Positions 43 to 20,000 of a stretch of 20,000 nt of DNA are shown piece after piece. A model generated the notes under the pieces. That model did not search any database, had not been told where the DNA came from, and worked only from the letters and a program-made list of their open reading frames with translations. The stretch is taken from assembly GCA_014905635.1 (NCBI GenBank), contig JABVCE010000027.1, forward strand, positions 484,319 through 504,318, in the 5' to 3' direction. Numbering within the stretch: position 1 is the stretch's first letter; each line of letters begins with the position of its first letter. Source of the stretch: Scenedesmus sp. PABB004. Lineage: Eukaryota. The position numbers and the translations under genes were made by a program.

Positions 43-3000
43 GGCGGCGAGGAGACGCGCGACGCGTGGGAGGTGTGCCGCAGCGGTCTGGGGCTGTACC
101 TGGTGCAGCAGGCGCTGGCGGGCATGGGCAGCAGCATCTCCGCCAGCAGCGAGGTGGGGCGGGGGAGCAGCTTTGTGTTTGAGCTGCCGCTCGCGGACAG
201 CGACTGCGAGAGCGAGAGCGAGGCGGACACCGACGTGTTCAGCGAGGCCGGAAGGTGCGCGCCAGCGCGCCGCAGCGCGCCGCAACGCCGGCGGGGCCCC
301 CTGCCGACGCGCGCCGCCGACGCCGCCGGCGCCGCCGCCGCTGCGTCGGCTCGCCGCAGCTTGCGCGCGAGCTTGGAGCTGGCAGACTTGGACGGCACCG
401 CGTGGCGCGGCGGCCCCGGCGGCAGCCTGCTGGCGGCCAGCGAGTCTGCGGCGTCTGTCAGCAGCAGGGGGCGCAACTCCATGGACTTGCTGGCGCCGCC
501 GGGCCAGGGCGCCGCGGCGCCGCCGCAGTCCTCGCTCCCGGGCGGTGCAAGCGGCGCCAACACTGCCGGCAGCAGCGCCTTGGAGCTGGGAGGCCAGGAG
601 CTGCAGGCGCCTACCACGGCGGGCGGCGGCGCCGCCAGGGCAGCGCCGGGCCAGGCAGTGGCCGGCGGCGGCAACGACCCCTCGAGCGGCACCGAGCCCG
701 CGGCCGGCGCCGAGCCGGGCGGTGCCGACGGCGCGCTGGGCGGGCCCTGCGGCGGCGCGGGGCTGGGCCCGCCCAAGCCGAGCCACCGCAGCGTGCGGGG
801 CGGGCGCATCCAGGTGCTGAGCGTCGACGACGACCCGGTGAACCAGCTGGTCGCCGGCACGGCGCTGCGCAGCCACAAGTGGGAGGTCGTCAAGTGCATG
901 AGCGGCGGCGAGGTGCGCCGCCGCGTGCGGGCCGCGCGGCGGGCGCCGCGCGGTGGCGGCGCCGCGCCCGCCCGCCCGCCCGCGCCGCGGCCGCCAGCGC
1001 ACCCGTGCGCCCCCACGGCCGCGCGCGCGCGCGGCGCGCAGGCGCTCGAGTACCTGAGCAGCGGGTGCGATGTGATGCCGGACCTGGTGCTGCTGGACGT
1101 GATGATGCCCAGCATGAGCGGCTACGAGGTCGCGGCGCGCATACGAGCGACATACCCCTCCAGCCTGCTGCCCATCATCATGGTGCGCGCGCCCCGCGCG
1201 CAGCGCGCCGCGCGCGCGCCGCACAGCACAGCACAGCACACAGCGGCGGCGGCGCCGCAGCGGCAGCGGCGCGGCCGCGTGGCGCGCCGAGCCCCCACGC
1301 CCCCGCGCGCGCCCGCGTCGCCGCGTCCCCGCGCCCTGCCGCGGCGCGCAGGTGTCGGCCAAGACTGAGGAGGAGGACATAGTGCAGGGCCTGCGCTGCG
1401 GCGCGGACGACTACATCACCAAGCCCTTCAAGCGCGCGGAGCTGGCGGCCCGCATCCGCGCCCACATCCGCGCGCGAGACGCGTTTGCCGAGGCGCAGGC
1501 CGTCGAGGCGGCGTGGCAGCTCGCACACAACCTGCTGCCCCCCAACGTGCAGCGCAAGCTGCGCGCCGGGGAGACGGTCATCGCGGAGAGCCACCCCGCT
1601 GCGAGCGTGCTCTGGGCGGAGGTCGTCGGCGGCGCGGCGCCCAGCCCCGGCGCGGCGCGAGAGGAGCAGCACGCAGCGCCGCCGCGGCCCGGCGCGGCGC
1701 CGGGCGCCGCGGGCGGCGCCGCCGCCAACGGCGCGGCGCTCGTGGCCCTCGGCGGCGGGCCCGGCCCGGGCGGCGTCGGCGGCGGGCTGACGCCGGCGGA
1801 GGCGGTGGTGACGCTGAACAGCCTGTACACGACGTGGGAGGAGCTGTGCGCGCGGGAGGAGGTGCTGGGCGTCGACTTCAGCGGCAGCACGTTTGTGGTG
1901 GTCAGCGGGCACGATGACGACCCCGGTCACCTGCTCAAGGTGCTGGCCACCGCGGAGGCCATGCTGCGCGCGGCGGCGGGCATGCGCCAGGCCGACGGCA
2001 GCGCGCTCGCGGTGCGGCTGGGCCTGGCCAGCGGGCCGCTGACCACGGGCCTGGTGGGCAGCAAGGTGGTCAAGCTCGTGCTCATGGGCGACACGGTGGA
2101 GGTCGCGCGCGCGCTGGCAGCGAGCGGCAGCACCCTCGGCCTGCACATCAGCGGCGCCGTGCACGCGGCGCTCGGGCCCGCCGCAGCGGCGGCAATGCCC
2201 TGGACGCTGCAGGCGCTGCCGGGCTGCGCTGCGCGCGCACACACCTACCTGCTGCCGCTGGGCGGCGGCGCCGGGGGCGTGCCCGCGCGCGGCGCCGACC
2301 AGGTGGCACGCCTGGACACCGGCCAGCGCCAGCGGCAGGGCAGCGGCAGCGAGCTCGCGGGGCCGAGCAGCGCAGACGGCAGCGTGGGGCGCGCCCCGCG
2401 CTTCGTACCCGCCCCCGGCAGCTGCGGCACCCCGGGCAGCGGCCAGGCGGCCGCCGCTGGCCTGGTGAGCGCGGCGCTGCCGGCCCCGGCCCCTGGCGGC
2501 TCGGTCGGCTTTGGCCGCAGCAGCGTCAGCAGCAGGCCGGGCAGCGCCCGCGCCAGCAGGGACGTGCGGCCGCAGGCCGGCAGCGGCGGCGCGGCGGCGG
2601 CGGCCAACGGCGCCGCTGCGGCCGGCGCCGAGGGCGTCGCGGAGGACTGGCTGCTGGTGAGCCCCGCGCGCGCGGCCGCGGCGGCGCGGGACCCAGCGCA
2701 CATGGTGTCAGCTGCTCCACCCTGCCGCGCGCTCACCCCGCCGACGCGTGCCGCGCCGCCGCAGAGCGACAGCACGCAGCTGCGCGGCGCCTGCAGCAAC
2801 AGCGGCAGCCCCGTTGTGACTCGGCACCAGCTGGCGGCGCTGCCAGCGGCCGTGGCGAGGGCCGCTGCGGCAGCTGCGGGCGGCGCCGGCGGCCAGGACG
2901 CGGACGGGGCGCAGTCTGCCGCGTCGGCGCTGCTGGCACAGCTGGGGACCGAGCGCCAGCAGCTGCAGCAGGCGCTGCTGGAGCGCACCCAGGCTGCGGC

Positions 3001-3661
3001 GGCGTCGCAGGCCGAGCTGGGCTGCGTTCGCGCGCAGCTGGGCGAGGCGCGCGCAGCAGCCGCCAGCCACGCTGGCACGGTCGAGGCGCTGCGCTCGCAG
3101 CTGGGCGCGGCGCTCATGCGGGCGCACCTGGCCGACTGCTGGCGCGCGCTGGCGACGATGCGGGGCCAGATGAGCAGCCTCAGCGCCGCCCTTCCGGGGA
3201 GCCTGGCGGGGCCGCCGCAGACCCTCGCGCTGCTGGGCGCGCCCGCCGGCCGCGCGAGCGGCAGCAGCGTGGGCGGCTCGCTGGCCGGCGGCTCGCTGGC
3301 CGGCGGCGACGCGGCCGGCGCCAGCCCCCTGCCCGGCCTGGACGCGCCGCCGGGCGGCGGCGCCGCGAGCGTCGTGGGCGCCAGCAGCGTCGGCGGCGCG
3401 CCGGGCAGCCCCGGCGCTGCGCAGCCGGCGCTGGCGCAGCTGCTGGCGCAGCAGTCGGCGCAGCTCACCGCGCTGCAGCAGCAGCAGCTGCTGCTGCTGG
3501 CGGGCCTGCAGCAGCAGGGCGCAGGGCTTGGCAGCCAGGCGTGGCCCGGCAGCGCCGGCGGCCTGCAGCCAGCGGGCTCCGCGACCGGCCCCGAGCAGCT
3601 GCCGGCCGCGCGCGCCAGCGGCGCCGGCAGCGCCGGCAGGGCCGGCGGCGCGGCGGGCTGA
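43..3661 (+). CDS. Hybrid histidine kinase - receiver - nucleotide cyclase-like protein, 5'-partial (histidine kinase rhodopsin / 2c-Cyclop-like architecture)
   Basis: Predicted exons 43-254, 360-912, 1042-1182, 1352-2656 and 2765-3661, all GT-AG. Introns 255-359 and 2657-2764 are in-frame and less certain. HATPase_c end: SGLGLYLVQQALAGMGSSISASSEVGRGSSFVFELP. Receiver: VLSVDDDPVNQLVA..PDLVLLDVMMPSMSGYEV..LPIIMVSAK..GADDYITKPF. Class III cyclase homology runs from LLPPNVQRKLRAGETVIAESH to VRLGLASGPLTTGLVG..MGDTV. The tail is coiled-coil and low complexity. The N-terminal sensor lies outside the window. Confidence 0.85.
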
Positions 3662-3963: not shown

Positions 3964-5562
3964 ATGGATGCCCAGGGGTGGCTCGGCCTGGGCCTGCACG
4001 GCGGCGGAGATGATGCCGAGGGCGCCGTGGACATCCCGCCCGCAGGCGTGGCGCTCGCAGGCGCCTTGATCTTCGTGCAGATCGCGCTGAGCGCACGGTG
4101 CGCTGCTGCTGCGCCGCTGCCGCGGCGCTCGGGCGGCGGCGGGCGCGGCACGCTCGCGGGCCGCGCGGCGCCAGGACGCGCTGCCAGGCTGCTTTGGGTG
4201 GCAGAGGCGCTGCGCCGGGCTGACCCTTTCCGCCGCCGCCGCCGCCGCCGCCAGGCTCGGCCTCGGCCTGCACTCGCAGCTCGCGATCGGCGGGGTGCGG
4301 TGCGTGGCGCAGCTGTCGCTGCTGGGGCTCATCCTGAAGCCCATCTTCACCTCCAACAGCGCCGCGCTCGTCGCGGCGTACGCGGGGTTTATGATCATGG
4401 TGAGCGCGGCCGAGGCGCTCGGCCGGCCGCCGGTGACGTACCGCTTCATGTTCCTGCACACCCTGCTCATCATCGCGGCGGTCGCGGCGAGCAGCATCGC
4501 CTACGCCCTGCTCGTCATCCTGCGCGTCACGCCCTGGTGGGCGCCGCAGGTGCGGCGCGCGCCGCGGCGCGCGGCCCGGCGCGGCGGCTGCGCCCGCCCC
4601 CGCGCGCGCCCGCCCACGCGCTCGCCTGCACGCCGTTGGCGGCGCCAGTACCTCATCCCGCTGCTGGGCATGCTGCTGGGCAACACCATCAGCGGCATCA
4701 GCGTGGGCCTCACCGCGGTGCTCGACGAGCTCGCCGGCGGCGCGGAGCGCGTGGAGCGCCTGCTCGCGCTCGGCGCGACGCGGCGCGAGGCGAGCGCCGA
4801 CCTGCTGCGCCGCGCGCTGCGCCTGGCCATGACACCGCTGCTGAACCAGATGAGCGTGGTGGGCCTGGTCAGCATCCCCGGCATGATGACCGGCCAGATC
4901 CTCGGCGGCGGCCGCCCAGACACCGCGGCGCGGTGCGGGGCAAGAGCGCCGGGGGGCCTGCCGGCCCACGCGCCGCTGTCCGTCGCCGCGCGGCCGCCCG
5001 CCCGCCGCCTCACGCCCAGCACCCCTGCTCACCCTCGCACCCCCCCTTGTGTACGGGGGTGGTCAGGTACCAGATGATGGTCATGTTCCTGCTCGGCTCC
5101 GCCTCCACCGCCGGCGCGGTCGCGTCCACGCACGCCGCGCTGTTTGCCGTCATCGACGCCCAGCACCGCCTGCACCCGGAGCGCCTGCACCGACGCCCGC
5201 ACGGCGCCGCGGGGGGCGTCAACGGCCTCGTCAACGCGGCGGCCATGGCGGTGTGGGCCGCGCGAGCGCGCGCGCGGCCGAGCGCGCCGCGGCCCGGCGG
5301 GCGCCGCCACACCGCGTGCGCTCAAGCGCGCGCTCGCGGCCCGCCCTCCGCTTGCCGCCCGCAGGTGTGGCGCGCGGTCGCAGGGGCGTGCAGCAGGACC
5401 GCCGCGTGCTGCTGCTGCTGCCTGCGGCGAGCCGAGCCACCAGCGCAGTGCGCCCCCGACGGCGCGGGGCGCGAGGCGACCGGGAGCGGCGCTGGCGCGC
5501 TCGAGGAGGCGAAGCAGCCGCTGCTGGGGGGGCCGGGCGGCAGAGACGGCAGCGACGCGTGA
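3964..5562 (+). CDS. UPF0014-family ABC transporter permease (FetB/YbbM, STAR2/ALS3-like)
   Basis: Exons 3964-4097, 4255-4549, 4649-4932, 5067-5250 and 5365-5562. Family motifs: RCVAQLSLLGLILKPIF, PQYLIPLLGMLLGNTISG, ERLLALGATRREA, MTPLLNQMSVVGLVSIPGMMTGQILGG, RYQMMVMF. Several hydrophobic helices. Confidence 0.9.
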   Translation: MDAQGWLGLGLHGGGDDAEGAVDIPPAGVALAGALIFVQIALSARCAAAAPLPRRSGGGGRGTLAGRAAPGRAARLLWVAEALRRADPFRRRRRRRQARPRPALAARDRRGAVRGAAVAAGAHPEAHLHLQQRRARRGVRGVYDHGERGRGARPAAGDVPLHVPAHPAHHRGGRGEQHRLRPARHPARHALVGAAGAARAAARGPARRLRPPPRAPAHALACTPLAAPVPHPAAGHAAGQHHQRHQRGPHRGARRARRRRGARGAPARARRDAARGERRPAAPRAAPGHDTAAEPDERGGPGQHPRHDDRPDPRRRPPRHRGAVRGKSAGGPAGPRAAVRRRAAARPPPHAQHPCSPSHPPLCTGVVRYQMMVMFLLGSASTAGAVASTHAALFAVIDAQHRLHPERLHRRPHGAAGGVNGLVNAAAMAVWAARARARPSAPRPGGRRHTACAQARARGPPSACRPQVWRAVAGACSRTAACCCCCLRRAEPPAQCAPDGAGREATGSGAGALEEAKQPLLGGPGGRDGSDA

Positions 5563-6420: not shown

Positions 6421-9400
6421 CTAGAGCTCGTAGAGCGTGAAGCTGAGGTTGTCGATGCCGACCACGTTGTCCGTGTCGCTGCCGGACGACACGAGCACGT
6501 CGTTGACCATGAACACCATCCCGTCGCCGCTCGCCACGCTGCTGGTCGGTGTCACGACAACGTCAAAGGTCTGCTGGTTCGCCGCGTCATCGCCGTCCAC
6601 GGGGCCCGCCGTGACCCCCGTGACCGTGGACGAGACCGTCGTCAGGTGGTTGCTGGCACTGGACGATCCGGGGACGGAGGGCCGGTTGACAACAGCTGAG
6701 GTGCTGCTGTCGATGCTGGAATATGTCGCAGCGAAAAACTTGTAAAACCAGAACTTGAGCTCTGGCTGGGCGGCGGTGGTGGTCCCGCGCCACCACGTCT
6801 TGAACGTGCCCTTGATGCGCAGGCGTGTGCCGGTGAAGCCGGTGTGCTTGACGGCGACGCCGTACTCAGGGGCTGTGCCGTTCCTGCCGCGCGAGCCGAG
6901 CGCGCACTCGGTTGCGTTGTTCGGGTTGCACAGCCGCAGGAAGCCGGTCGGCGGCTGCGCGCGGGGGAAGGGGGTGGGGGGCAGGTGGCAGCAACTCAGG
7001 GGCGTGGTTCGTGGCTCGCCGCGGCGTGCAGCGCGCGCTGGGCGTGCGCGCAGCGCGCGCTGGGCGCAGCCGGCCCCACCTGCGCTGCGGCCGGGTCGTA
7101 CGACAGCAGCGGGAGGTTGGTTGCCCCCGACGTGGTCCACAGGAAGTACCGCACGAACGACGGCGTGGAGGCGGTGGCGGGCAGCCACCGGCCGGACAGG
7201 GAGGCGGTGCTGTTGTCGGGGAGCTCTGAGAGGTCGTTGAAGTCAAGAAAATATGTCGTCTCGCCTGCAGCCGACCGGGGGCGGGCGCGCGTGCGTGTGT
7301 GAGCCCCGCGCGAGCGCGGGCAGCAGACAGGCCCGCAGCCGCCGAGCCCCCACCCCCTCCTCCCGTCCCCTCGCGCGCCGGGCGGCAAGGGCGCGCGTGC
7401 GGCGCTCACAGATGACCCTGATCGTCAGGGTGACGTGGCTGCTCGTGTCGCTGCCGCCGTTGGCGGTGCCGCCGCTGTCGGTGAGGTAGACGTCCAGGAA
7501 CGCACTGCCGCACGTGGTGCCGTCCGTGGTGAAGGTCAGCCTGCCCATGTTGCCTGCGAGCGGGGCGCGTGCGCGAGCGCGCGGTCAGGGGGGTGGCCGC
7601 AGCAGCCGGCCAGGGCAGCCGCGCGCAGCAGTCACGGCCGCCGCGCGCGGCGCAGCACGCACCGACTGCTGAGCTGATGGCGGGCTGCGTGCCAAAGAGG
7701 GCGGTGTTGGAATTGCTCCCAATGACAAACGTAAGCTGCTGCCCGCTCTCGTCGGCCGGACCCGTTTGAATGTTGGTGGCCCACTGCGGCGCGCGCAGAC
7801 AGGCAGCCGGTGGGCACAGGCGGCAGGGGGCGCGCCAGCGCGCGGGGCCTGGGCTGCTCCGGCCACCAGCAGCCGCTGGCTGGGGGCAGCGCGTGCTGCC
7901 CAGCCCGAATCTCACCGCCTGATCGTACTGCACACCCTGGCCGTTGCTGGTGTCGATCTGAGCGACCTGAATGTTGGTGTTCCCCGGCGTGAAGGTCGGG
8001 GGGTCGTTCACTGCGCGTGGCGCGGGCGAGAGCAGCGCGAGCTCGGTCGGCGCCGGGGCGCGCAGCAAGCGCTGGCGTGGCGCGCTGCTCGCACGCGCGC
8101 CAAGAACAGCAGCCCACCTGGCACGACTATGAGCGCGAAGCTCTGCACTGTCAAGGCACTGCCCCCGGACGTGCCACTGGCGTCATCGGTGACTGCGACG
8201 CTGCACGTCGCCACGCCATTGGCGTGTTGGGCGACCACAAAGCTCAGGTCCCAACTGGCCGCCCCGGTCTGGGTAAGCGCAGGCTGCGTCGTGAAGGTGA
8301 GGCCACCTGCGCACGTCACCGTGGCACTCACGATCTGCTGCCCTGCGTCCACAGGGTCTGCGCACGTGATGAACGGGGACACAGTCCAGCTGGAGGGGAG
8401 ATCCTCGTACGCCGTGACCGTTGCGGGGATGGTGAACGTGGGCGGGGTGTTGCCTGAGCCGCTCGCTGCGCGGGAACAGCAACAGGCAGATGTGAGGGCG
8501 GTGTGAGGGCAGGCAGGTGGCGGTCGGTGCTGAACAAGGCGTCCTGCTGCCCCGCTGTGGCGCCTGCGCGGCTGCCCGCACAGAGGGCGCGTGCCCGAGC
8601 ACGGCCGCCGACCGCCACGGCACCGCCACCCCCGCGCAACTCACTGGTGCAGGCCGCGGGTGTGGTCACCGTCCACTGACCGCTCTGGCAGGTCGCCACG
8701 GGCGCCGTGCCGCTGTTGCCGCTGTTGCAGGAGCCCGTGCACGTGCTGCCGTCTGCGGTGGGGCAGGAGCCAGGCCACGCAGCGTTGGTGCCGGCCGACG
8801 AAGCCACAGAGGTGGAACACGTGACAGGGGTCACTGGGCAGGGGCGGCAGCGGCGCAAAGAGGTCAGGCGTCAGGTGGCAGCGGCCTCGGCGGTGCAGCA
8901 GGCCGATGCAACCAGGCAGCCGCGCCCGCTGCGCGCGCAAGCTCACCGGTGCAGGCCGCGGGCGTGGTCACCGTCCACTGACCGCTCTGGCAGGTCGCCA
9001 CGGGCGCCGTGCCGCTGCTGCCGCTGTTGCAGGAGCCCGTGCACGTGCTGCCGTCTGCGGTGGGGCAGGAGCCAGGCCACGCAGCGTTGGTGCCGGCCGA
9101 CGAAGCCACAGAGGTGGAACACGTGACAGGGGTCACTGGGCAGGGGCGGCAGCGGCGCAAAGAGGTCAGGCGTCAGGTGGCAGCGGCCTCGGCGGTGCAG
9201 CAGGCCGATGCAACCAGGCAGCCGCGCCCGCTGCGCGCGCAAGCTCACCGGTGCAGGCCGCGGGCGTGGTCACAGTCCACTGACCGCTCTGGCAGGTCGC
9301 CACGGGCGCCGTGCCGCTGCTGCCGCTGTTGCAGGAGCCCGTGCACGTGCTGCCGTCTGCGGTGGGGCAGGAGCCAGGCCACGCAGCGTTGGTGCCGGCC

Positions 9401-12400
9401 GACGAAGCCACAGAGGTGGAACACGTGACAGGGGTCACTGGGCAGGGGCGGCAGCGGCGCAAAGAGGTCAGGCGTCAGGTGGCAGCGGCCTCGGCGGTGC
9501 AGCAGGCCGATGCAACCAGGCAGCCGCGCCCGCTGCGCGCGCAAGCTCACCGGTGCAGGCCGCGGGCGTGGTCACCGTCCACTGACCGCTCTGGCAGGTC
9601 GCCACGGGCGCCGTGCCGCTGCTGCCGCTGTTGCAGGAGCCCGTGCACGTGCTGCCGTCTGCGGTGGGGCAGGAGCCAGGCCACGCAGCGTTGGTGCCGG
9701 CCGACGCCGCCACAGAGGTGGAACACGTGACAGGGGTCACTGGGCAGGGGCGGCAGCGGCGCAAAGAAGTCAGGCGTCAGGTGGCAAGGGCCTCGGCGGT
9801 GCAGCAGGCCGATGCAACCAGGCAGCCGCGCCCGCTGCGCGCGCAAGCTCACCGGTGCAGGCCGCGGGCGTGGTCACAGTCCACTGACCGCTCTGGCAGG
9901 TCGCCACGGGCGCCGTGCCGCTGCTGCCGCTGTTGCAGGAGCCCGTGCACGTGCTGCCGTCTGCGGTGGGGCAGGAGCCAGGCCACGCAGCGTTGGTGCC
10001 GGCCGACGCAGCCACAGATGCGGAGCATGGCGTCGTCACTGGCGGCCAGGGACAGGGGCCCAGATCGCAGTCCTGCTGCTGCGTGGCACCGTTGGCCTGG
10101 GGGCAGGGCGCGCCGCCGTGCTGCGCCTCAGTCGCGACGGCGTATGTCGCGGTGATGGTGCCCGGGCCGCATGTCATGCTGCAGGTTGCGCCCGCCGTCG
10201 TCCAATCGCCCTTGCAGTCGATGGGACAGGGCACGCCGCAGGCAACGCTGGTCGTGTCGCCGTCGCGCAGCACCCTGCCGTCGGTGCTCAAGCACTCCGC
10301 GCCACCGTTGGACGCGGGGACTATGCGCGCGCGGCGGCGGCGGGGGCGGTGGTCAGGGCTTGGCGCCGCAGCCCGCGCCTGGCCCCTGCACAATCCATGG
10401 CTGCGACGCCACGCCGCTGTGCCAGGCGCCCCCGCACTCACTCGCAATGCGGAAGGTGAGGGTGCGCTCGCCGGCGCCGCACTGCTTGCTGCACGCGCCG
10501 ACCACCCAGGCGCCCACGCACGCCGTGGGGCAGGTGCCATCGACGGAGCAGTCGGCGGGCGCGATGGGCTCGCTGGAGACCAGCCGCTCGGCCGCAAAAA
10601 CAAAACCTACCTGATCGGCTTGTGCCCCTTCCACCGGGGTGCCCTTGCGCAGCCGGCAGTCAAACGTGCCTGAGCTCACGTCGTCACCCTCGCCGCTGAC
10701 GCGGAGCGCGATCACGGCGATGCACGGCACGTAGGCGAGGGCGGCGCACGCGGCCGCGCACTGAGCAAAAGGCACCCCGACAAGCGACGTGTGAACCATC
10801 GCCTCGCCCAGCGTCTGGTCGCCCTCGAGGTTGAAGAGCGCACCGTCCAGCCGCTGCTGCCCGGTGCTCGTGCGGCGCGCGAGGAGGCTGCGGCGGCGGC
10901 TGCCAAAGCGCGAGGGAATGAACAGCTTGTTGGGGCTGCCCGCGTGCGCGGTCTGCGGCGGCCAAGCGCGGCAGCGCGCGCGTGAGCAGGCAGCAGGGCG
11001 CTCGAGCAGGGCGCGCGAGCAGGCAGCAGCAGCGCCAAGCCCGCGGCAGCCCCGCTGCTGCCCACCTCGAGCAGCAGCTCGCACTTGCCGGGCCCGCCAA
11101 ACCTTCGGGCAGGGGCACATACAGGCAGGGACAGGCGTGAGGAGCGCGGCTTGCGCAGGGCTGCCAGTAGCGCATCTCAGCGGGGGCGCGGGGCGTACCT
11201 GTACAGCATGCAGCCAGCGCGTTTGGCGCACGAGGCAGCACACGATGCGGCGGTGTCCGTCCCCGGCACGGGCACTGCTGGAATGTGGGCACTCCCCACA
11301 ACGATGCCGACGGCTGGCTGGGTTGTGCGGACGCACTGCGCGGCACTGGCCGCGCCTGCGGCGTGCGCGGGCGGCGGCAGGGCGGTTGATCGAGGCCAGC
11401 GTTAGCGCACAAGGGCCGTGGCGGCGTGCGCAGCTCGCAAAAGCTGTATCGCCGTGCTGCGCGGCGTGCGCGCTCTGCCAACACACCCGCGGGGGCCGAA
11501 AAGCCGTCAGCGCAGGCCTGGCAGGGCCCCGCTTGCTCGGTATCGCTGAACGTGTCGACCGGGCACGCGGCGCACCCGGCGCCCTGAGCCAGGCTGCCGT
11601 GGCCCACTAGGCACAGCGAGCAGGCGGCCGCGCTGGTTGAGGTGCTGCCCAGCGTGGTTGAGCCAGGCGCGCAAGCGGTGCAGGGGGTTGGCGCGCCGCC
11701 GGCCGACCAGGTGCCGCGCGGGCAGGCCACGATGGCCTCCTCAACGCCGGTGGTGCCGAAGCCAGGTGGCAGCTGGGCGGCCGTGCACTCGTTTGCAGAG
11801 GTCGCGGCGGTCATCGGGGTGGTGCTGCCGGACGGGCAGGGCGTGCAGTGCCGCGTGATGTCGTAGCCGCGGGACCAGCTGCCCGCGGGGCAGGGGGCGG
11901 CCACCGGCACGCCCTTGCGCGAGGTGATGAAAAAGCCGGGCACGGGCACTGCGCGGCGCGCGGGGCAGCACGCGCGGCAGGCAGTGAGCATTGGCGGCGG
12001 CGGCAGCGGCAGCAGCAAAGGCGCGCCGCTCCCCGCGCGCGCCAGAGCGTGCCAGCAACTCACGGCAGGACTTAGGGCCCGCGTTGGCCGTCGCCTTGGT
12101 AGCAGCCGCCCCTGGGATCTGATCCGCGGTCACCATGTTGGCCGGGCTGCAGACGCGGCGGAGAGCGCAGCGCCGGCCATGCTGTCATCGCGCACGCGCA
12201 CCCCGGGCCGCCGCCGCGCCGACAGCAGGCTCGGCAAGTCAGTGAGCGCGCGCGGCGCGCGGCGCGCGGCGCACTCACCAGCGCTGGCACTCGACCAGCA
12301 TGTTGCGGGAGTAGGTCTTGTCGACGCGGCCGTACGTGCCCTGGCCGCAGCTGACCACGGTCAGCACGCCGCCCACGCGCGCGGTGCCGGAGCCGGGGGG

Positions 12401-12956
12401 GAAGAAGCAGAGGTTGTTGTCGTCCGTGGCCGTGCCGTCGGTCAGGAAGCCGGGGCCGCAGCTGCGGCAGGGCTTATTGTTCCAGCCCTCCTTTGTGCTG
12501 CCGATGGGGCAGCGCTTGGGCGTCTCGGCGTCGCTGCCAAGCGTCAGCATCCAGCCAGGCGCGGCCCCTGCGCCGGCAGGCGACGGTTGTCGCGCGGCGC
12601 GGCGCGGCGGCAGGGCGTCGGCGGCTGCGGCTGCGCGCGGCGGCCGCGAGGCCTGGCTGTGCGCGGCAGCGCTCCCACTCACTGCAGGCGTCGACGCCGC
12701 TCGCGGCGCGGTGCTTCACCGCGACGACCTCAGGGCCGAAGGCCTGGGAGCAGCGCTTGGGCGCGGCGGCCCCGCCAGGGCAGTAGAAGGGCGGCCGACA
12801 CGCCACGCAGGCACCGGCCTCCAGAAAGGTCCCGGGTTTGCACGGCTTGCTCATCGCGAAGGTGCCCCGAGCGTGTGCGGGCGGCGCGAGCAGTGCGGCA
12901 GCCAGCGCGGCCGCCAGCACGTACAGCACCGCCCGCCGAGGGGGCATGATGGCCAT
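6421..12956 (-). CDS. Large secreted multidomain protein (~1487 aa): signal peptide, GCC2/GCC3-type Cys repeats, 2 PAN/apple-like, 2 TSP1-like, 5 sushi-like Cys modules, 2 cadherin-like domains, C-terminal beta-sandwich
   Basis: 18 phase-compatible GT-AG exons: 12956-12683, 12567-12279, 12146-12064, 11948-11487, 11355-11199, 11102-11066, 10952-10442, 10320-9853, 9739-9551, 9437-9249, 9135-8947, 8833-8645, 8465-8118, 8010-7916, 7783-7663, 7553-7410, 7264-7080 and 6954-6421. They sum to 4464 nt, which is divisible by 3. Signal peptide MAIMPPRRAVLYVLAAALAAALLAPPAHA. CPxGxW/CxxCPxGSTT repeats. TSP1-like DCKGDW..CSMTCGPG..GGAPCP. No TM or GPI signal visible at the C-terminus. Confidence 0.8.
8645..10020 (-). 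repeat. Tandem array with a 302-bp unit (189-nt phase 1-1 exon + 113-nt intron); 5 copies of the coding module
   Basis: Exon 3' ends recur at 8645, 8947, 9249, 9551 and 9853. The units, including the introns, differ at only a few bases. Each encodes ..CSTSVASSAGTNAAWPGSCPTADGSTCTGSCNSGSSGTAPVATCQSGQWTVTTPAACT. Confidence 0.97.
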
Positions 12957-13952
12957 AGACTGGACAGGCTCGCAGGCACGCGCCGGGAGGGCGCGCGGAG
13001 GCGTGCGGGCGCTTGCGGTCCCCGCTGCGCCGATGGCCGGCCCTGGGCTCTCGCGCAGGCAAGGCACAGGGGTCGCAGGGCCGCTGGATTGGATGCCTCG
13101 TGGGGCTATCAAGCAGGGGGAGCACGCGGAAAGCTGCGCGGATGCGGGACGGGCGCGCATTCTTGCCCGGCGGGGCTCCGCTCTGCCGAGCTTCCCGGCT
13201 TCCCGACCGCGCCGGGGGCGCGCGCACGCTGCCGCAACGCACGCGCCGCGCTGGGTAGGACCTGGCAGACTGACCCGTATTGCGATTGTCGCAACGAACG
13301 CGGCAGCAGGGCGGCGTGCAGCGAGGTCACAGGCACGGCAGCGGGAGCTGCGCAGCGAACGGCGGTGGACACGCGCGATCAAATGCCGGCGGTGTGACCG
13401 GCCCGTCATGCACATACGCGCTCAGCAGCCGGGCACAATTGCAGCTCGCGCCCTCACGCACGCACGGACGGCTGTGTGCCGCTGATTGCCACACGCCGCA
13501 CGAGCGCTGCGCGGCACCGCACACGGCAGCACGCCCCGCCACGCCTTGGCCCCTGCCGCGGCGGCGCAGCCACCCGCGTCAGCCGCGCCGCGCCAGCACG
13601 CGCGCGATGTACTCCACCGCCGGCACGTCGGCGAGCGGTTGAGGCGCCCGCGCTTGGTGAAGCCGCCCCCCGGCCGCTCACACGAGCGTCCGCTTTACAA
13701 AGTTGGCAAACTTGGACGTGCTGCTGTAGCTGTACGCCACGCCCTGCTCCTGCAGCAGCGCCTCCAGCCGCGCGCGCAGCGCCTCGGGCTTGTCCTGCGG
13801 CGGGCGCATGACGCAGCGGCGGCGCGCGGGCCGACTCAGCGGTCATGGCATGGCAGGCCCGTAAGGCAGTGCGCGCAGCCGCGCGCACCGACTCTGCCTC
13901 GAGTTCGTAGAGGCTTCCCCACTCGTAGCGCGTGGCGTCCAGCTCGAGCGTG
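12747..13952. repeat. Internal arm of a ~1.2-kb inverted duplication (partner 18518-19785)
   Basis: The reverse complement matches 18518-19785 apart from a few substitutions and one 62-bp indel. The ORF track shows mirrored proteins, e.g. 13109..13372- versus 19160..19423+. Confidence 0.97.
13418..13633 (-). repeat. Copy of the PNGase last codons and 3' UTR located downstream of the TTM3 stop
   Basis: The reverse complement matches ~18296-18514 (cgccgacg..gccggcggtggagtacatcgcgcgcgtgctggcgcggcgcggctga...). A third copy lies at ~18837-19060. Confidence 0.93.
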
Positions 13953-15560: not shown

Positions 15561-18350
15561 ATGGAGGAGGCTGACCGCCTGCTCGCGGCGGCCCTGCAGG
15601 TGCAGCGCGGTTGGCAGCGGCGCCGCCGCTGCCGCCTGACTCCGCCGCCAGACACCGCCTGCCCTGCCCCTCCCCCCGCAGGCCGAGGAGGACGCGGCGG
15701 CGGCGCGGGAGGCGAGGCGGCCACCGGGGGACGAGCAGGACGAGAAGGCGCGGCTCCTGGCGGAGCTCAACGCCGGCGTGGCCAAGGCGCTGTCTGTGCG
15801 TGCGGCTGCTGCGCGCAGCTGGCTGGCGCTGCCGGCGGCCCGCGCGCTGAGCGCCCAACGCCGGCGCCGCGCGCCACAGGTGGAGGATGCGTCGGCGCGC
15901 GCAGCCGCGCTGGAGCTGATGCCGCTGGCAGAACTGCGCGCCGAGGCGGCCGCCACGGCGGCGCTGCACGCCCGCCTCGGCGAGCCGCTGCGCTGCGGCG
16001 AGGGGGACCTGGTGGTGCAGGGGCTGGCCGCGTGGTTCAAGGCCTCGTTCTTCACCTGGGTGCGCGGGCGGGGCTGGGGCCGCGGCGCGTGGGCCACACA
16101 GCGTGGGGGGCCGCCTGCTGGCGGGGGCCCCGCCGCCGACCCGCCGCCCCCGACGCCAGGTCGACGAGCCGCCGTGCGAGGTGTGCGGCGGCGGCACCAC
16201 GCACGCCGGCATGGCGGCGCCCACGCCGCAAGAGGCGGCGCACGGCGCGGGGCGTGTGGAGACCTACCGCTGCACCGTCTGCTCCCAGGCAGGGCCCAGC
16301 CCGCCGCTGCCGCCCCGCCGGCGCGCCGTGCCGCTGCGGGCTGAGGCTCGTCTCGCTGGCTGACGCGCCAGCGCTGTGCGGCGCGCTGCCCGCAGGTGAC
16401 GCGCTTCCCGCGCTACACACACGCCCTCAAGCTGCTCAGCACGCGCCGCGGCAGGTGCGCGCGGCGTGGCGGCGCGGAGCTGCTGGGTGCGTGGGGACCC
16501 TCGCGGCTCAGCTGCCGTGCCGCGCAGGTGCGGCGAATGGGCGCACACGTTCCTGTTGCTGCTGCGCGCGGCGGACTTTGAGGCGCGGCACGTCTCCGAC
16601 ACCGCTGATCACGTGTGGTGTGAGTACTGGAGCGACGGGCTCGGGCGCTGGGTGCACGTGGATGCGTGCGAGCGCTCGTGGGATCAGCCGCTGCTCTATG
16701 AGGCGGGCTGGGGCAAGCGCATCGCGCACGCCTTTGCCGCGGGCAGGCACGGCGTCGCGGACGTCACGCGGTGCGCGCCGGCTGCCAGGGGGCGCGGCTG
16801 GGCAGCCGCCGGCCGTGCGCTGCGTAGGTCGCCGCCGCTCGCTGCCTTGCTGACTCAACCGCTGCGTCGCCGCACGCAGGCGCTACGCGGCGGAGCCGGC
16901 GGCCCTGGCCGCGCGCCGCAGCCGCGTGCCAGAGGCCTGGCTGGCCTCCGCGCTCGCCAGCGTGACCCGCCCGCTGCGCGCGCCGCTGGACGCCGCCGCG
17001 CGGCGCAGCCTCGCGCTGCGCGACGCTGCCGAGGCGCTGGAGCTCATGGGCCTGGAGGACGCGCGGGCGGGCGGGGCGCGGCAGGCAGGCCCGGACCTGC
17101 CCGGCCGACACTCGGGCGCGCAGGCGTGGCGCGCTGCGCGTGGCGAGGCGGGTGCGTCGAGCGCGCGGCCGCGACGCGTGTGGTTGGCTCGCCGCGCAGC
17201 TGCCTCGTTCTCACCTGTGCTGCCACCGCACCGCTGCACAGGTGCCGGGGGCAGCGGCAGCGGCAGCGGCAGCGGCGGCGGCAGTGGCACGCAGTACAGC
17301 AGCCCTGGCGACGACGCGTTGCCGAGCTTGTTTGCCGCCGCGGGGCGTCTGAGCGGGGGCGTGTGCCGCGCGTCCGGCCAGCACGGCGCCGAGGTGCCCC
17401 GCAACCTCTTTGACGGCGCGCTCGGCAGCAAGTGGCTGGATTTCGGCGGCGGCGGCGTCGGCGGCAGCGCTTGGGTTGAGTACCGCCTGCTGCCCGGCGC
17501 ACACGCGGTGGTCACGCACTACAGCCTGCTCAGCGCCAACGACAGCCCAGAGCGAGACCCGAGCGACTGGGTGCTGGAGTGCAGGCCGGCGGCCGCGCTC
17601 GGCGGCAGCGGCCAGCAGTGGGTGGCGGTCGACGCGCAGAGCGCGCAGACGTTCAGCCGGCGGCACGCGCTGCGGAGCTTCGCGGTGCCCGCTACGGCTC
17701 GCATCGCAAGCAGCCAGTGGCGCCTGCGCATCACGCGCACAGCCGACCCGCGCGCCGCCAACAGCGTTCAGCTGGCAGGCTGGTGTCTGTACGACGCCGC
17801 CGCGAGCGGCGTGCTGCGCGACCTGGCGCGCGATGAGGATGCGCGGGCGCGGCGGTCGGAGCGGCCATCGGCAGAGCTGCCGCCGCCGGAGCGCCAGCCG
17901 CCTGAGCAGGAGCTGGCGGGTCAGCAGCCGGCGGCGGAGCAGCCGGCGGGTCAGCAGCCGGCAGCGGAGCAAGCGCCGCCGCCGGCGGAGCAGGCGCCGC
18001 CGGCGGAGCATGCGCCGCCGGAGCTGCTCTTCCTCGGCAACGGCCGCTGGCGCGGCCTGCTGCGCGGCGCGGCGCAGCCGGGCGGCGACGCGGGCGGTGA
18101 GGCGCTCGCCACGCTCGCGCGGGTGCTGGACAACATGCGGGCCCACCCTGGCGCGCCCAAGTTCCGGCAGCTGTCCGCCGCCAGCAGCAGGCTGGCCGGC
18201 GCGCTGCAGCGCCCGCTGCTGCTGGCGACGCTGCTCGAAGTGGGCTTCAGGCCCGTCATCGACGAGCAGCGCCAGCTCAAGCTGCTAGCTGACGACGCCG
18301 ACGCGCCGGCGGTGGAGTACATCGCGCGCGTGCTGGCGCGGCGCGGCTGA
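15561..18350 (+). CDS. PNG1: Peptide:N-glycanase (transglutaminase-like core, F5/8 galactose-binding-like domain, C-terminal PUB-like domain)
   Basis: Exons 15561-15599, 15682-15795, 15880-16059, 16160-16288, 16396-16454, 16528-16770, 16880-17151 and 17242-18350. Motifs: WFKASFFTWVDEPPCEVC, YRCTVC, TRFPRY, TRRGRCGEWA, DHVWCEYWS, RWVHVDACE, DQPLLYEAGWGK, DVTRRY. The Cys-His-Asp triad and both CxxC zinc pairs are intact. Confidence 0.93.
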
Positions 18351-18517: not shown

Positions 18518-18792
18518 CACGCTCGAGCTGGACGCCACGCGCTACGAGTGGGGAAGCCTCTACGAACTCGAGGCAGAGTCGGTGCGCGCGGCTGCGCGCA
18601 CTGCCTTACGGGCCTGCCATGCCATGACCGCTGAGTCGGCCCGCGCGCCGCCGCTGCGTCATGCGCCCGCCGCAGGACAAGCCCGAGGCGCTGCGCGCGC
18701 GGCTGGAGGCGCTGCTGCAGGAGCAGGGCGTGGCGTACAGCTACAGCAGCACGTCCAAGTTTGCCAACTTTGTAAAGCGGACGCTCGTGTGA
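18518..18792 (+). pseudogene. Duplicated 3' fragment of TTM3 (part of exon 4, last intron, last exon)
   Basis: TLELDATRYEWGSLYELEAES / intron / DKPEALRARLE..KRTLV*. It has no start codon or 5' exons. Confidence 0.9.
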
Positions 18793-19785
18793 GCGGCCGG
18801 GGGGCGGCTTCACCAAGCGCGGGCGCCTCAACCGCTCGCCGACGTGCCGGCGGTGGAGTACATCGCGCGCGTGCTGGCGCGGCGCGGCTGACGCGGGTGG
18901 CTGCGCCGCCGCGGCAGGGGCCAAGGCGTGGCGGGGCGTGCTGCCGTGTGCGGTGCCGCGCAGCGCTCGTGCGGCGTGTGGCAATCAGCGGCACACAGCC
19001 GTCCGTGCGTGCGTGAGGGCGCGAGCTGCAATTGTGCCCGGCTGCTGAGCGCATGCACGCGCACGCCTCTCCGCCCGCTGGCCAACGCGGGGCTCGCAGC
19101 GGCCGCGCGGGCGCGTATGTGCATGACGGGCCGGTCACACCGCCGGCATTTGATCGCGCGTGTCCACCGCCGTTCGCTGCGCAGCTCCCGCTGCCGTGCC
19201 TGCGACCTCGCTGCACGCCGCCCTGCTGCCGCGTTCGTTGCGACAATCGCAATACGGGTCAGTCTGCCAGGTCCTACCCAGCGCGGCGCGTGCGTTGCGG
19301 CAGCGTGCGCGCGCCCCCGGCGCGGTCGGGAAGCCGGGAAGCTCGGCAGAGCGGAGCCCCGCCGGGCAAGAATGCGCGCCCGTCCCGCATCCGCGCAGCT
19401 TTCCGCGTGCTCCCCCTGCTTGATAGCCCCACGAGGCATCCAATCCAGCGGCCCTGCGACCCCTGTGCCGTGCCTGCGCGAGAGCCCAGGGCCGGCCGTC
19501 GGCGCAGCGGGGACCGCAAGCGCCCGCACGCCTCCGCGCGCCCTCCCGGCGCGTGCCTGCGAGCCTGTCCAGTCTATGGCCATCATGCCCCCTCGGCGGG
19601 CGGTGCTGTACGTGCTGGCGGCCGCGCTGGCTGCCGCACTGCTCGCGCCGCCCGCACACGCTCGGGGCACCTTCGCGATGAGCAAGCCGTGCAAACCCGG
19701 GACCTTTCTAGAGGCCGGTGCCTGCGTGGCGTGTCGGCCGCCCTTCTACTGCCCTGGCGGGGCCGCCGCGCCCAAGCGCTGCTCC
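18518..19785. repeat. Telomere-proximal arm of the inverted duplication of 12747-13952
   Basis: Direct reverse-complement match. The left junction shares a CACGC microhomology and the right end abuts the telomere. Confidence 0.97.
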
Positions 19786-19794
19786 AGGGTTTAG
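19576..19794 (+). pseudogene. Telomere-truncated copy of exon 1 of the secreted mosaic gene (72-aa ORF, stop codon supplied by the telomere repeat)
   Basis: Same protein as the N-terminus starting at 12956- up to ..APKRCS, then RV* read from AGG GTT TAG. Confidence 0.85.
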
Positions 19795-20000
19795 GGTTTA
19801 GGTTTTAGGGTTTAGGTTTTAGGGTTTAGGGTTTAGGGTTTAGGTTTAGGGTTTAGGGTTTTAGGTTTAGGGTTTAGGGTTTAGGGTTTAGGGTTTAGGG
19901 TTTAGGGTTTAGGGTTTAGGGTTTAGGGTTTAGGGTTTAGGGTTTAGGGTTTAGGGTTTAGGGTTTAGGGTTTAGGGTTTAGGGTTTAGGGTTTAGGGTT
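19786..20000 (+). repeat. Telomere, (TTTAGGG)n
   Basis: About 30 tandem heptamers running to the window end, G-rich strand pointing outward. TTTAGG and TTTTAGG(G) variants are confined to the proximal ~80 bp. Confidence 0.99.

Follow-up and report, generated by a model that had tools for sequence, protein, structure and literature searches.

Two adjacent domains encoded by a nuclear gene of the green alga Scenedesmus sp. PABB004 belong by descent, as judged by comparison of their sequences, to the bacterial tandem-95 / Big_9 / Cadherin_5 superfamily, and the best reading of their origin is that they came from bacteria by horizontal transfer, to which we assign a probability of about 65%. The gene lies in a 20,000-nucleotide stretch of contig JABVCE010000027.1 (the window, which denotes the whole stretch analysed), and its features are given below in window coordinates, in the order of transcription. 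Residue numbers refer to the NCBI protein 'TTM3 [Scenedesmus sp. PABB004]' (P0032).

10353..12959 (approximate), minus strand: upstream exons of the same gene, with a signal-peptide-like start, Ephrin_rec_like Cys-rich repeats and a TSP1-like exon (tblastn, domain scans)
8640..10147, minus strand: five tandem 302-nt units, each with one exon and one intron, for the 6-Cys module copies that immediately precede domain 1 in the gene; relative to the reference copy, the others show 99, 99, 97 and 72% identity
8466..8644, minus strand: intron of 179 nt, phase 1, separating domain 1 from the final exon of the 6-Cys modules (sequence and P0032 junction ...AACT|TSGSG)
8118..8465, minus strand: domain 1 exon, 348 nt, residues 980-1094, a degenerate cadherin-like repeat with phase-1 introns on either side (splicing, phmmer, BLASTP)
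8011..8117, minus strand: intron of 107 nt, GT..AG, phase 1, exactly at the repeat boundary ...IVVP|VNDPP... (sequence; its GC content is 0.79, that of the exons beside it 0.61-0.67)
7916..8010, minus strand: domain 2, exon 1 (VNDPPTFTPG...YDQA) (splicing, alignment)
7784..7915, minus strand: intron of 132 nt within domain 2, phase 0 (sequence; the bacterial rows have no insertion here)
7663..7783, minus strand: domain 2, exon 2 (WATNIQTGPADESGQQLTF...ISSAV) (splicing, alignment)
7554..7662, minus strand: intron of 109 nt within domain 2, phase 1, with an alga-specific 4-residue insertion, VGNM, at the junction (sequence, alignment)
7410..7553, minus strand: domain 2, exon 3 (GNMGRLTFT...DSGGTANGGSDTS...LTIRVI) (splicing, tblastn, alignment)
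7265..7409, minus strand: intron of 145 nt, phase 1, separating domain 2 from the C-terminal domain (sequence)
7080..7264, minus strand: first exon of the C-terminal domain, residues 1216-1276 (tblastn)
6421..6954, minus strand: last exon of the C-terminal beta-rich domain, 177 codons plus stop, following a 125-nt intron (tblastn)

The spliced minus-strand exons of 7410-8465 encode residues 980-1215 of P0032 letter for letter, and a tblastn comparison of P0032 with the window gave 100% identity in the exons that it resolved. All of the spliced peptides quoted in the original prediction were found on the minus strand, the interval it had named ends exactly at the outer exon ends (7410 and 8465), and its claim that introns split the second domain is borne out: domain 1 is carried on a single exon and domain 2 on three, separated by two GT-AG introns. 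The splice donors are gtgggc, gtgaga, gtgcgt and gtgagc, and all acceptors end in ...gcag. The predicted splice junctions of the two domains are supported by their canonical GT-AG sites, by the reading frame that they restore, and by the alignment of the spliced product with 45 bacterial repeats without intron-sized insertions. The 107- and 109-nt introns are not multiples of three, so that their removal restores the frame, while the 132-nt intron is stop-free and in frame, so that its retention would be read through.

The modules of the protein follow one another in the order signal-peptide-like start, Ephrin-receptor-like Cys-rich repeats, TSP1-like exon, five 6-Cys modules, repeat 1, repeat 2 and C-terminal beta-rich domain. 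The signal-peptide-like start, judged by eye, lies at residue 195 of P0032 (near position 12956), from which we consider the protein to be putatively secreted. The database model P0032 probably fuses a CYTH gene with the mosaic gene and skips the TSP1-like exon. A tblastn comparison of P0032 with the window revealed no further repeat copies, so the gene has two copies only and no long array. The window also carries, at 12747-13952 and 18518-19785, a 1.2-kb inverted duplication, 99-100% complementary, which is possibly an assembly artefact.

Sequence comparison connects both domains to bacterial repeats. Domain 2 scores 70-83 bits against single bacterial repeats (phmmer, residues 1-120) and is 49-53% identical to them by BLASTP, far above chance, and this confirms the likeness to bacterial cadherin-like repeats that the original prediction had put forward. 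Against 45 repeats translated from named bacterial genomes (alignment A1) its identity is 46-55%, and none of the 13 invariant or 19 nearly invariant residues of that alignment has been lost from it; the acidic positions D4, E45, D99 and D109, which are conserved in the family, are kept as well. Domain 2 opens with PVNDPPTF, and domain 1 opens with NTPPTF and keeps the family motifs only in part. Scores of domain 1 against bacterial repeats are 25-36 bits over residues 5-113 (phmmer), at 30-35% identity by BLASTP. When both domains were used together as query, most of the best 120 of 1063 matches were collinear with two successive bacterial repeats over 97% of the length, at 36-43% identity. 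The unspliced reading from exon 2 through the intron to exon 3 recovered 77 proteins at E <= 1e-3 from a 5.8-billion-protein database (407 candidates, all scored). The matched sequences include bona fide members of the superfamily, such as the bacterial repeat at residues 241-348 of P0068, which scores 73 bits against domain 2 and itself passes Cadherin_5 (45.2 versus 26.5) and Big_9 (45.5 versus 23.6), and the proteins P0059 and P0148, which pass NF012211.

Curated models miss both algal domains, and superfamily membership therefore rests on pairwise homology to such bona fide members. Domain 2 alone matched no Pfam family at E <= 10, and the models PF17963, PF17892, PF17803 and NCBIfam NF012211 (tand_rpt_95, whose cut-off of 90 bits needs several repeats) are absent from the whole of P0032 at E <= 0.1. 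A sub-threshold Big_13 match at domain 1 is the only Pfam match of the whole protein at the repeats. Exon by exon, Pfam and NCBIfam likewise yielded matches below threshold only, on domain 1. The domain 1 exon alone reaches E 0.44 with Big_9 (11.9 bits, cut-off 23.6, profile positions 1-84 of 89), and this domain has lost the WAT and GPADESGQ motifs. Language-model features group residues 980-1215 with Big_9/Cadherin_5/Cadherin_4 clusters (score 0.97).

The predicted structure of domain 2 is a cadherin-like beta-sandwich. AlphaFold2 returned an all-beta model of 8 strands (pLDDT 89, pTM 0.81), and in a structure search independent of Foldseek the top 10 and altogether 38 of the 50 entries shown were EC domains of the cadherin superfamily, which likewise headed the Foldseek results. 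The best structural match is Cadherin-23 EC6-8 (PDB 5tfm), with Z 9.4 and an rmsd of 2.6 A over 96 residues, to be read against best Z values of 7-8 that are common for unrelated beta-sandwiches. Metazoan cadherin EC domains (Cadherin-23 EC6-8, protocadherins) resemble domain 2 in fold but share 11-24% identity with it in structural alignment and have no sequence-level match: the classical cadherin HMM PF00028 matched neither P0032 nor domain 2, and a sequence search of the PDB with domain 2 gave no match (best E 0.12, to an unrelated protein). The N-terminal linker of domain 2, N-D-P-P-x-F, recalls the DxNDNxPxF linker of cadherins.

The gene is nuclear and host-integrated, and is not contamination, as indicated by its algal-type introns, host-like GC3, eukaryotic flanking exons and genes, and its location on a contig of 504 kb. 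The host alga is very GC-rich; the introns of the gene are all GT-AG, 107-179 nt long, with a GC content of 0.79-0.83, and the exons have 0.61-0.67. GC3 is 0.75-0.98 in the repeat exons and 0.88-0.89 in other exons of the gene, and the neighbouring genes are ordinary eukaryotic ones (cyclase, UPF0014, CYTH, PNGase-like). All three module boundaries are phase-1 introns, which is a signature of exon shuffling. With regard to an introner-type origin, the six introns compared share short GC-rich matches only, and no repeated element was found in the window. The original prediction had taken the stretch to be genuine nuclear sequence, in agreement with a multi-exon gene in which Ephrin_rec_like repeats, a TSP1-like exon and the 6-Cys module adjoin the repeats. 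It is accordingly very improbable that the repeats stem from contaminating bacterial DNA or a chimaeric assembly, or that gene prediction has pieced together a pseudogene in decay. Such an error could be suspected from the imperfections of P0032 elsewhere (the probable CYTH fusion and the skipped TSP1-like exon) and from the inverted duplication, but it would have to account for four canonical GT-AG introns that resemble those of the host in length and composition, host-like exon GC3, a frame that is open through all exons, the retention of 32/32 conserved family positions, a confidently folding domain 2 model (pLDDT 89), and eukaryote-type flanking exons that obey the same phase rule, each module boundary being of phase 1.

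Outside this gene, the best matches were overwhelmingly bacterial. A scan of prokaryote genomes showed that 151 of the 591 pattern-matching stretches encode relatives, and 80 loci from at least 11 named phyla were kept (L002-L081). Among matches with a named organism, 10 of the 11 obtained with the unspliced query and 22 of the 24 obtained with the two-domain query (within its best 120 of 1063) are bacterial, the non-bacterial ones being the protein itself and one diplonemid transcript. The best matches are bacterial and not eukaryotic, which agrees with the predicted transfer. No other green-algal protein was present among the 77 matches of the unspliced query or among the best 120 of 1063 of the two-domain query, a ranking in which an algal protein carrying only a copy or two would come after the multi-repeat bacterial ones. 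No close relative of the domain 1 exon was detected in JGI metagenomes, where 1 of 576 stretches matched; this match (L001) covers 22 residues only and was taken as spurious. A literature search found no report of a tandem-95, Big_9, Cadherin_5 or cadherin-like domain in green algae, and term searches of the main text and supplementary files, possibly incomplete, of PMC13315243 and PMC12757656 returned no mention of the domain.

Other eukaryotes do carry the family: it occurs in the transcript of the diplonemid Sulcionema (P0148), in an Atlas cluster labelled Eukaryota/Haptophyta, for which the phylum is known for one member, and in Vermamoeba vermiformis, whose tandem-95 repeat gene g6416 is reported, with its best hit and a read count, as an expressed gene gained by transfer (PMC7125106). 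This raises the alternative that the domain is an ancient eukaryotic or old algal one, inherited vertically and lost or unrecognised in most lineages, the bacterial matches reflecting the abundance of the family in bacteria. We regard vertical descent as unlikely. An identity of 46-55% to repeats of 11 bacterial phyla is high for a split of eukaryote age, and the Sulcionema repeats are far more distant, scoring 13-45 bits against domain 2 compared with 70-83 bits for bacterial repeats, and are placed apart from the algal domains in the repeat tree. It also counts against this alternative that no other green-algal protein appeared among the 77 matches, with all 407 candidates scored, and that domain 1 is without a close relative in the JGI metagenomes. 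Vertical descent does draw support from the failure of curated HMMs on the algal domains, since similar algal copies could be unannotated, and from the possibility that low-copy matches fall outside the best 120 of 1063. A further point in its favour is that no other row of A1 diverges as much as domain 2, whose mean identity is 50.0% versus 58.5% among bacterial rows that were themselves selected for likeness to domain 2; none of the 45 bacterial rows is lower. This divergence fits an old event, yet it weakens any inference of the donor.

Less probable again is an indirect route, via a giant virus or another eukaryote that took the repeats from bacteria. A recent survey reports endogenous elements of giant viruses from 18 Scenedesmaceae genomes (PMC13315243), and the relatives in other eukaryotes named above would offer a second vehicle; on the other hand, none of the 11 pattern matches in a scan of IMG/VR with domain 2 proved to be related, viral hallmark genes are absent among the 10 ORFs scanned in the window, and the nearest sequences by score are all bacterial.

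The phylogeny that had been suggested as a check on the transfer places domain 2 amid bacterial repeats, but in no strongly supported set. In this tree of 105 repeats and 110 columns, 58 of the 101 inner branches are unresolved and 7 are starred; domain 2 falls in a bacterial polytomy (SH-aLRT 87, not starred), and domain 1 is paired with one bacterial repeat (95, starred) on a long branch. Since the tree is unresolved, it does not establish nesting within bacteria or the donor, and we rejected it as a basis for naming one. A single clade of domain 1 and domain 2 was not rejected by the AU test (p 0.857), and the tree constrained to this clade surpassed the quick free tree by 57 log-likelihood units, so that the pair may stem either from duplication after transfer or from transfer of two repeats.

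If the repeats came from bacteria by horizontal transfer, as we favour, a piece of a bacterial surface-protein gene comprising one or two repeats would have entered the algal lineage and then been ameliorated to host codon usage. Spliceosomal introns, including the two that split repeat 2, would have been added, and the repeats would have become phase 1-1 exon modules of an extracellular protein. There is ample documentation of whole bacterial genes passing into algae; the 2026 survey, whose genomes include 115 of Chlorophyta and 38 of Scenedesmaceae, reports 261 such families in Scenedesmaceae (PMC13315243). What moved here would be a fragment of a surface-protein repeat array and not an enzyme gene, incorporated into a eukaryotic extracellular mosaic by way of exon-shuffling modules. 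The domain that would have acquired introns is known without interruption from thousands of bacterial copies, so that at least three intron gains can be placed cleanly by comparing the states before and after, and the case can serve to test how foreign domains are made to fit phase-1 exon shuffling. Because curated domain models can miss captured domains of this kind, domain-based surveys of algal surface proteins may undercount them.

The closest counterparts are bacterial proteins of the tandem-95 / Big_9 (PF17963) / Cadherin_5 (PF17892) / Cadherin_4 (PF17803) type, for example P0058 (Chloroflexi bacterium AL-W, NOK63541.1), P0149 (Dokdonella immobilis) and the loci L002-L081. Their repeats share with domain 2 a unit of ~110 residues (about 115-120 in the algal repeats), the start VND(A/P)P.F and the motifs WAT.I..GP.DESGQ, N.N.ALF..QPA, G.L.FT and D.GGTANGG.DTS. 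Bacterial loci contain many repeats (a median of 4 domain-2-like matches per ~6-kb locus), whereas the algal gene has two, and unlike the bacterial repeats these carry spliceosomal introns, are joined to eukaryote-type Cys-rich modules and have two alga-specific insertions of 4 and 4-6 residues. Vermamoeba g6416 (PMC7125106) likewise brings this bacterial repeat family into the nuclear genome of a eukaryote; the algal gene differs from it in having two repeats as 1-1 exon modules in a green-algal mosaic protein.

The original prediction of a horizontally acquired adhesin module has in its favour, as to acquisition, the bacterial-type repeats and their bacterial best matches; the adhesin role was drawn from the repeat family, and by the same analogy it can be suggested for the algal protein. 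In BapP of Pseudoalteromonas tunicata and in RTX/Bap-type Ca2+-dependent adhesins, Big_9 beta-sandwich repeats are reported to serve as extender or stalk modules (PMC12153261), which provides a working stalk model for the algal repeats. BapP-type adhesins are bacterial outer-membrane/T1SS proteins that carry many repeats together with RTX or retention modules, and the algal protein has no such features. By comparison with bacterial adhesin repeats, the two algal repeats may act as a short, rigid spacer or stalk, which Ca2+ might stiffen and which would keep the C-terminal domain at a distance from the remainder of the protein within the cell wall or matrix, with the C-terminal domain as a possible ligand- or carbohydrate-binding head.

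A bolder reading, which we offer tentatively and consider rather doubtful, is that the entire C-terminal third is a bacterial cassette (two repeats plus a head of ~240 residues) captured as phase-1 exon modules in an animal-style mosaic in one colony-forming algal lineage, as a lineage-specific adhesion device. If so, it could mediate adhesion of cell to cell in the coenobium or of alga to bacterium, and its introns would all be younger than the transfer, providing a datable intron gain in an extremely GC-rich genome. An HMM of the C-terminal domain and its two relatives detected nothing in 200 other proteins or 81 loci, and thus there is no sign of this domain travelling with tandem-95 repeats in bacteria. 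A word-based protein search with the domain returned itself alone (1 of 5276 candidates), and the AlphaFold2 model of its last exon is poor (pLDDT 54). Across 1.84 billion representatives, this beta-rich domain of ~240 residues has two bacterial proteins as its only detectable relatives, one of them named Bacteroidia, and in the Atlas the domain is linked to unnamed clusters, with sub-0.9 leads to galactose-binding-like and CBM_4_9 families.

We recovered all peptides quoted in the original prediction from the minus strand of window positions 7410-8465, and these two positions are the exact outer exon ends of our splice model, which was limited to canonical sites. Downstream of the two cadherin-like repeats (domains 1 and 2), the joined frame stays open through two more exons, which encode the C-terminal domain (6421-7264):

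8465-8118, minus strand: predicted exon, domain 1
8010-7916, minus strand: predicted exon 1 of domain 2
7783-7663, minus strand: predicted exon 2 of domain 2
7553-7410, minus strand: predicted exon 3 of domain 2
7264-7080, minus strand: predicted further exon, C-terminal domain
6954-6424, minus strand: predicted last exon, C-terminal domain, with the stop at 6421-6423

The predicted spliced product of 7410-8465 equals, letter for letter, residues 980-1215 of the NCBI protein of this mosaic gene (P0032, 1453 aa, 'TTM3 [Scenedesmus sp. PABB004]', encoded on the 504-kb contig), which is 100% identical to the window for the exons resolved by tblastn. The introns separating the four repeat exons are 107, 132 and 109 nt long in the model, and because two of the three are not multiples of three, their removal is needed to keep the frame. 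The first intron within domain 2 (7784-7915, 132 nt) is in frame and free of stops, so a transcript retaining it would encode 44 extra residues instead of a truncated protein. An alga-specific insertion of four residues (VGNM) lies exactly at the third junction; the junction may have slid, or the predicted splice site may be slightly off.

The proposed identity of the domains as cadherin-like repeats of bacterial type is borne out, as domain 2 (P0032 residues 1094-1215, on three exons) aligns along its full length with individual repeats from large bacterial proteins, at 70-83 bits and, in BLASTP, 49-53% identity. Relatives of domain 2 are encoded by 151 of 591 pattern-matching stretches in prokaryote genomes; the 80 loci kept come from 11 named phyla and are 41-53% identical to it over the full length, with one partial match reaching 58%. 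Aligned with 45 bacterial repeats (75 were eligible), domain 2 retains all 13 invariant and all 19 nearly invariant positions, including VND.P.F, WAT, GP.DE..Q, N.N..LF..QP, G.L and D.GGT.NGG.D.S. Domain 1 (residues 980-1093, a single exon) reaches 25-36 bits and 30-35% identity against bacterial repeats and is 27% identical to domain 2; judged by its sequence, it is a degenerate copy of the repeat. In most of the 120 matches listed, a query of both domains aligns collinearly, over 97% of its length, with a pair of consecutive bacterial repeats.

Pfam returned no family for domain 2 alone, even at E <= 10, and Big_9 matched the domain 1 exon alone at E 0.44 only; in scans of the whole of P0032, the sole Pfam match at the repeats was a sub-threshold one to Big_13 at domain 1, and NCBIfam matched neither repeat. 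Since curated models miss both domains, we base family membership on homology to proteins that are recognized members. Residues 241-348 of the bacterial protein P0068, a repeat that matches domain 2 with 73 bits, pass Cadherin_5 and Big_9, and two other proteins matched in our searches (P0059 and P0148) pass the NCBIfam model 'tandem-95 repeat'. Language-model features gave a score of 0.97 to the Big_9, Cadherin_5 and Cadherin_4 clusters.

The claim that domain 2 is interrupted by spliceosomal introns also holds, in that it is divided among three predicted exons with GT-AG sites. All introns of the repeat stretch are GT-AG, 107-179 nt long and of higher GC than the exons (0.79-0.83 vs 0.61-0.67), and the bacterial rows of the alignment have no insertion at the intron positions. 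GC3 of the repeat exons (0.75-0.98) is similar to that of the gene's other exons (0.88-0.89). Phase-1 introns occur at all three boundaries, namely between the six-cysteine module and domain 1, between the two domains, and between domain 2 and the C-terminal domain, so that each module is flanked symmetrically (1-1), as is typical of extracellular proteins assembled by exon shuffling. The GC content of the window is very high (0.67-0.80 per kb), which fits the 78.5% reported for the genome of strain PABB004 (39.8 Mb, 77 contigs; PMC12571836). A domain scan of 10 ORFs found CYTH and the following among the neighboring genes:

1118-3661, plus strand: Guanylate_cyc and Response_reg ORF (adenylate/guanylate cyclase with receiver domain)
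4091-5077, plus strand: UPF0014 ORF (184 bits)
16400-18350, plus strand: Transglut_core ORF with a weak PUB match (PNGase-like)

The gene content around the repeats, in the 10 ORFs scanned, is ordinary for a nuclear, eukaryotic region.

With exon 2, intron and exon 3 of domain 2 as query, 77 matches were obtained from 407 candidates, all scored, and the 11 with a named organism comprise 10 bacteria and P0032 itself. Among the best 120 of 1063 significant matches to the two-domain query (8000 scored), where multi-repeat bacterial proteins would push an algal protein of one or two copies off the list, the 24 with a named organism comprise 22 bacteria, P0032 and the diplonemid Sulcionema specki. 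No close relative of the domain 1 exon was found in JGI metagenomes, nor any relative of domain 2 in IMG/VR. These search results fit a transfer of the repeats from bacteria, while falling short of a full test of it. The Sulcionema protein (P0148, a EukProt transcript, 1835 aa) has at least 12 repeats of the tandem-95 family, with 100 bits to the NCBIfam tandem-95 model; it could be the product of a true eukaryotic gene or of bacterial prey or contaminant RNA.

We reconstructed a repeat tree from 105 rows and 110 columns, in which the two algal domains were combined with 78 of the 80 loci, the 15 repeats most like domain 1 and 10 of the 12 Sulcionema repeats. Most of this tree lacks resolution (58 of 101 branches open). 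Domain 2 falls within a polytomy of bacterial repeats, domain 1 is the long-branched partner of a single bacterial repeat, and the Sulcionema repeats scatter elsewhere, away from the algal domains. A sister grouping of the two algal domains was not rejected by an AU test (p 0.857), so the repeats may have arrived as one that later duplicated or as two. No row of its alignment is more divergent than domain 2 (mean identity 50.0%, vs 58.5% among bacterial rows), and this divergence, the host-like GC3 and the gained introns point to an old rather than a recent transfer event.

The C-terminal domain (P0032 residues 1216-1453, about 240) matched no Pfam or NCBIfam family, and a word-based search returned P0032 only. 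When its last exon was run with HMMER against all 1.84 billion representatives, three matches resulted, one of them a low-complexity match to a 5994-aa protein. The two real matches (35-37% identity, E 1.8e-5 and 9.1e-5) are 'MAG: Ig domain-containing protein [Bacteroidia bacterium]' and a protein that we take to be bacterial because of its close kinship to the former and its signal-peptide-like start. Both are collinear with the algal sequence from one end of the domain to the other, and the alignment takes in the Y..DFN.LP motif at the N-terminus and the IDD/IDN motif at the C-terminus. Thus the domain adjoining the repeats likewise has bacterial relatives only among these representatives and may be of bacterial origin as well; a profile of the three sequences, run on 200 other proteins and 81 loci, found no bacterial protein joining it to tandem-95 repeats. 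An AlphaFold2 model of the last exon was too poor for use (pLDDT 54), and galactose-binding-like and CBM_4_9 leads were below the tool's trust level.

The AlphaFold2 model of domain 2, built with its alignment, is an eight-stranded beta-sandwich (pLDDT 89, pTM 0.81). In a Foldseek-independent search of 48,161 PDB representatives, cadherin-superfamily EC domains made up all of the top 10 matches and 38 of the 50 entries shown, the closest being Cadherin-23 EC6-8 (Z 9.4, rmsd 2.6 A over 96 residues). Foldseek gave the same picture (E about 1e-3), and a sequence search matched no PDB chain. Since Z of 7-8 is common even for unrelated sandwiches in the search used, we call the modeled fold cadherin-like and do not take it as proof of kinship with animal cadherins.

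Inspected by eye, P0032 shows a signal-peptide-like start at residue 195 and a C-terminus that is not hydrophobic; the tandem repeats sit between the five six-cysteine modules and the beta-rich C-terminal domain. In bacterial adhesins, repeats of the tandem-95/Big_9 family are described as extender or stalk modules, stiffened in some cases by Ca2+ (PMC12153261; PMC8877628). By analogy, the algal pair would probably be a short rigid spacer presenting the C-terminal domain in wall or matrix.

The same bacterial repeat family is reported in another eukaryote, as an expressed Vermamoeba gene has a Solitalea tandem-95 repeat protein as its best match (PMC7125106). For Scenedesmaceae, bacterial transfer is documented for 261 gene families (PMC13315243), and the available text and six supplementary files of that study mention no cadherin, Ig-like, Big_9, tandem-95 or VCBS. 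The term 'cadherin-like domains' occurs in a study surveying receptor kinases of chlorophytes (PMC12757656); the sole entry found in its available supplements is a short language-model annotation on a Chlamydomonas protein of a different family. Our literature search found no report of a tandem-95/Big_9-type domain in green algae.

Outside 7410-8465, the gene model of P0032 is imperfect, and the following features bear on the gene or its surroundings:

8640-10147, minus strand: tandem array of five 302-nt units (one exon and one intron per unit), copies 99, 99, 97 and 72% identical to the reference
9770-10606, minus strand: ORF with TSP1-like stretch (TSP1_spondin, E 9.5e-7, 29.4 bits, cut-off 41)
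12747-13952 and 18518-19785: inverted repeat (~1.2 kb; complementarity 99-100%), arms 4.6 kb apart
19758-20000: 14-nt tandem repeat after the inverted repeat, reaching the window end

The TSP1-like stretch is skipped by P0032, and the true protein may therefore exceed the annotated length. Residues 2-180 form a CYTH domain joined to the remainder across a 739-nt 'intron' (12959-13699; 107-179 nt elsewhere), and a methionine at residue 195 leads into a hydrophobic segment resembling a signal peptide; 'TTM3' is probably a fusion of two genes (aa 1-194 and 195-1453). The 302-nt units encode a repeated six-cysteine module, about 63 residues long, for which Pfam gave no match. That the copies are nearly identical even in their introns suggests duplication in the very recent past, gene conversion or a collapsed assembly. 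P0032 includes only the last ~36 residues of each unit, and an AG at 8834-8835 would yield a 189-nt phase 1-1 exon. Through the inverted repeat, the final CYTH exon and exon 1 of the mosaic gene, with its signal-peptide-like start, are duplicated on the plus strand; this is either an artefact of assembly or another, diverging copy of the gene that extends beyond the window.
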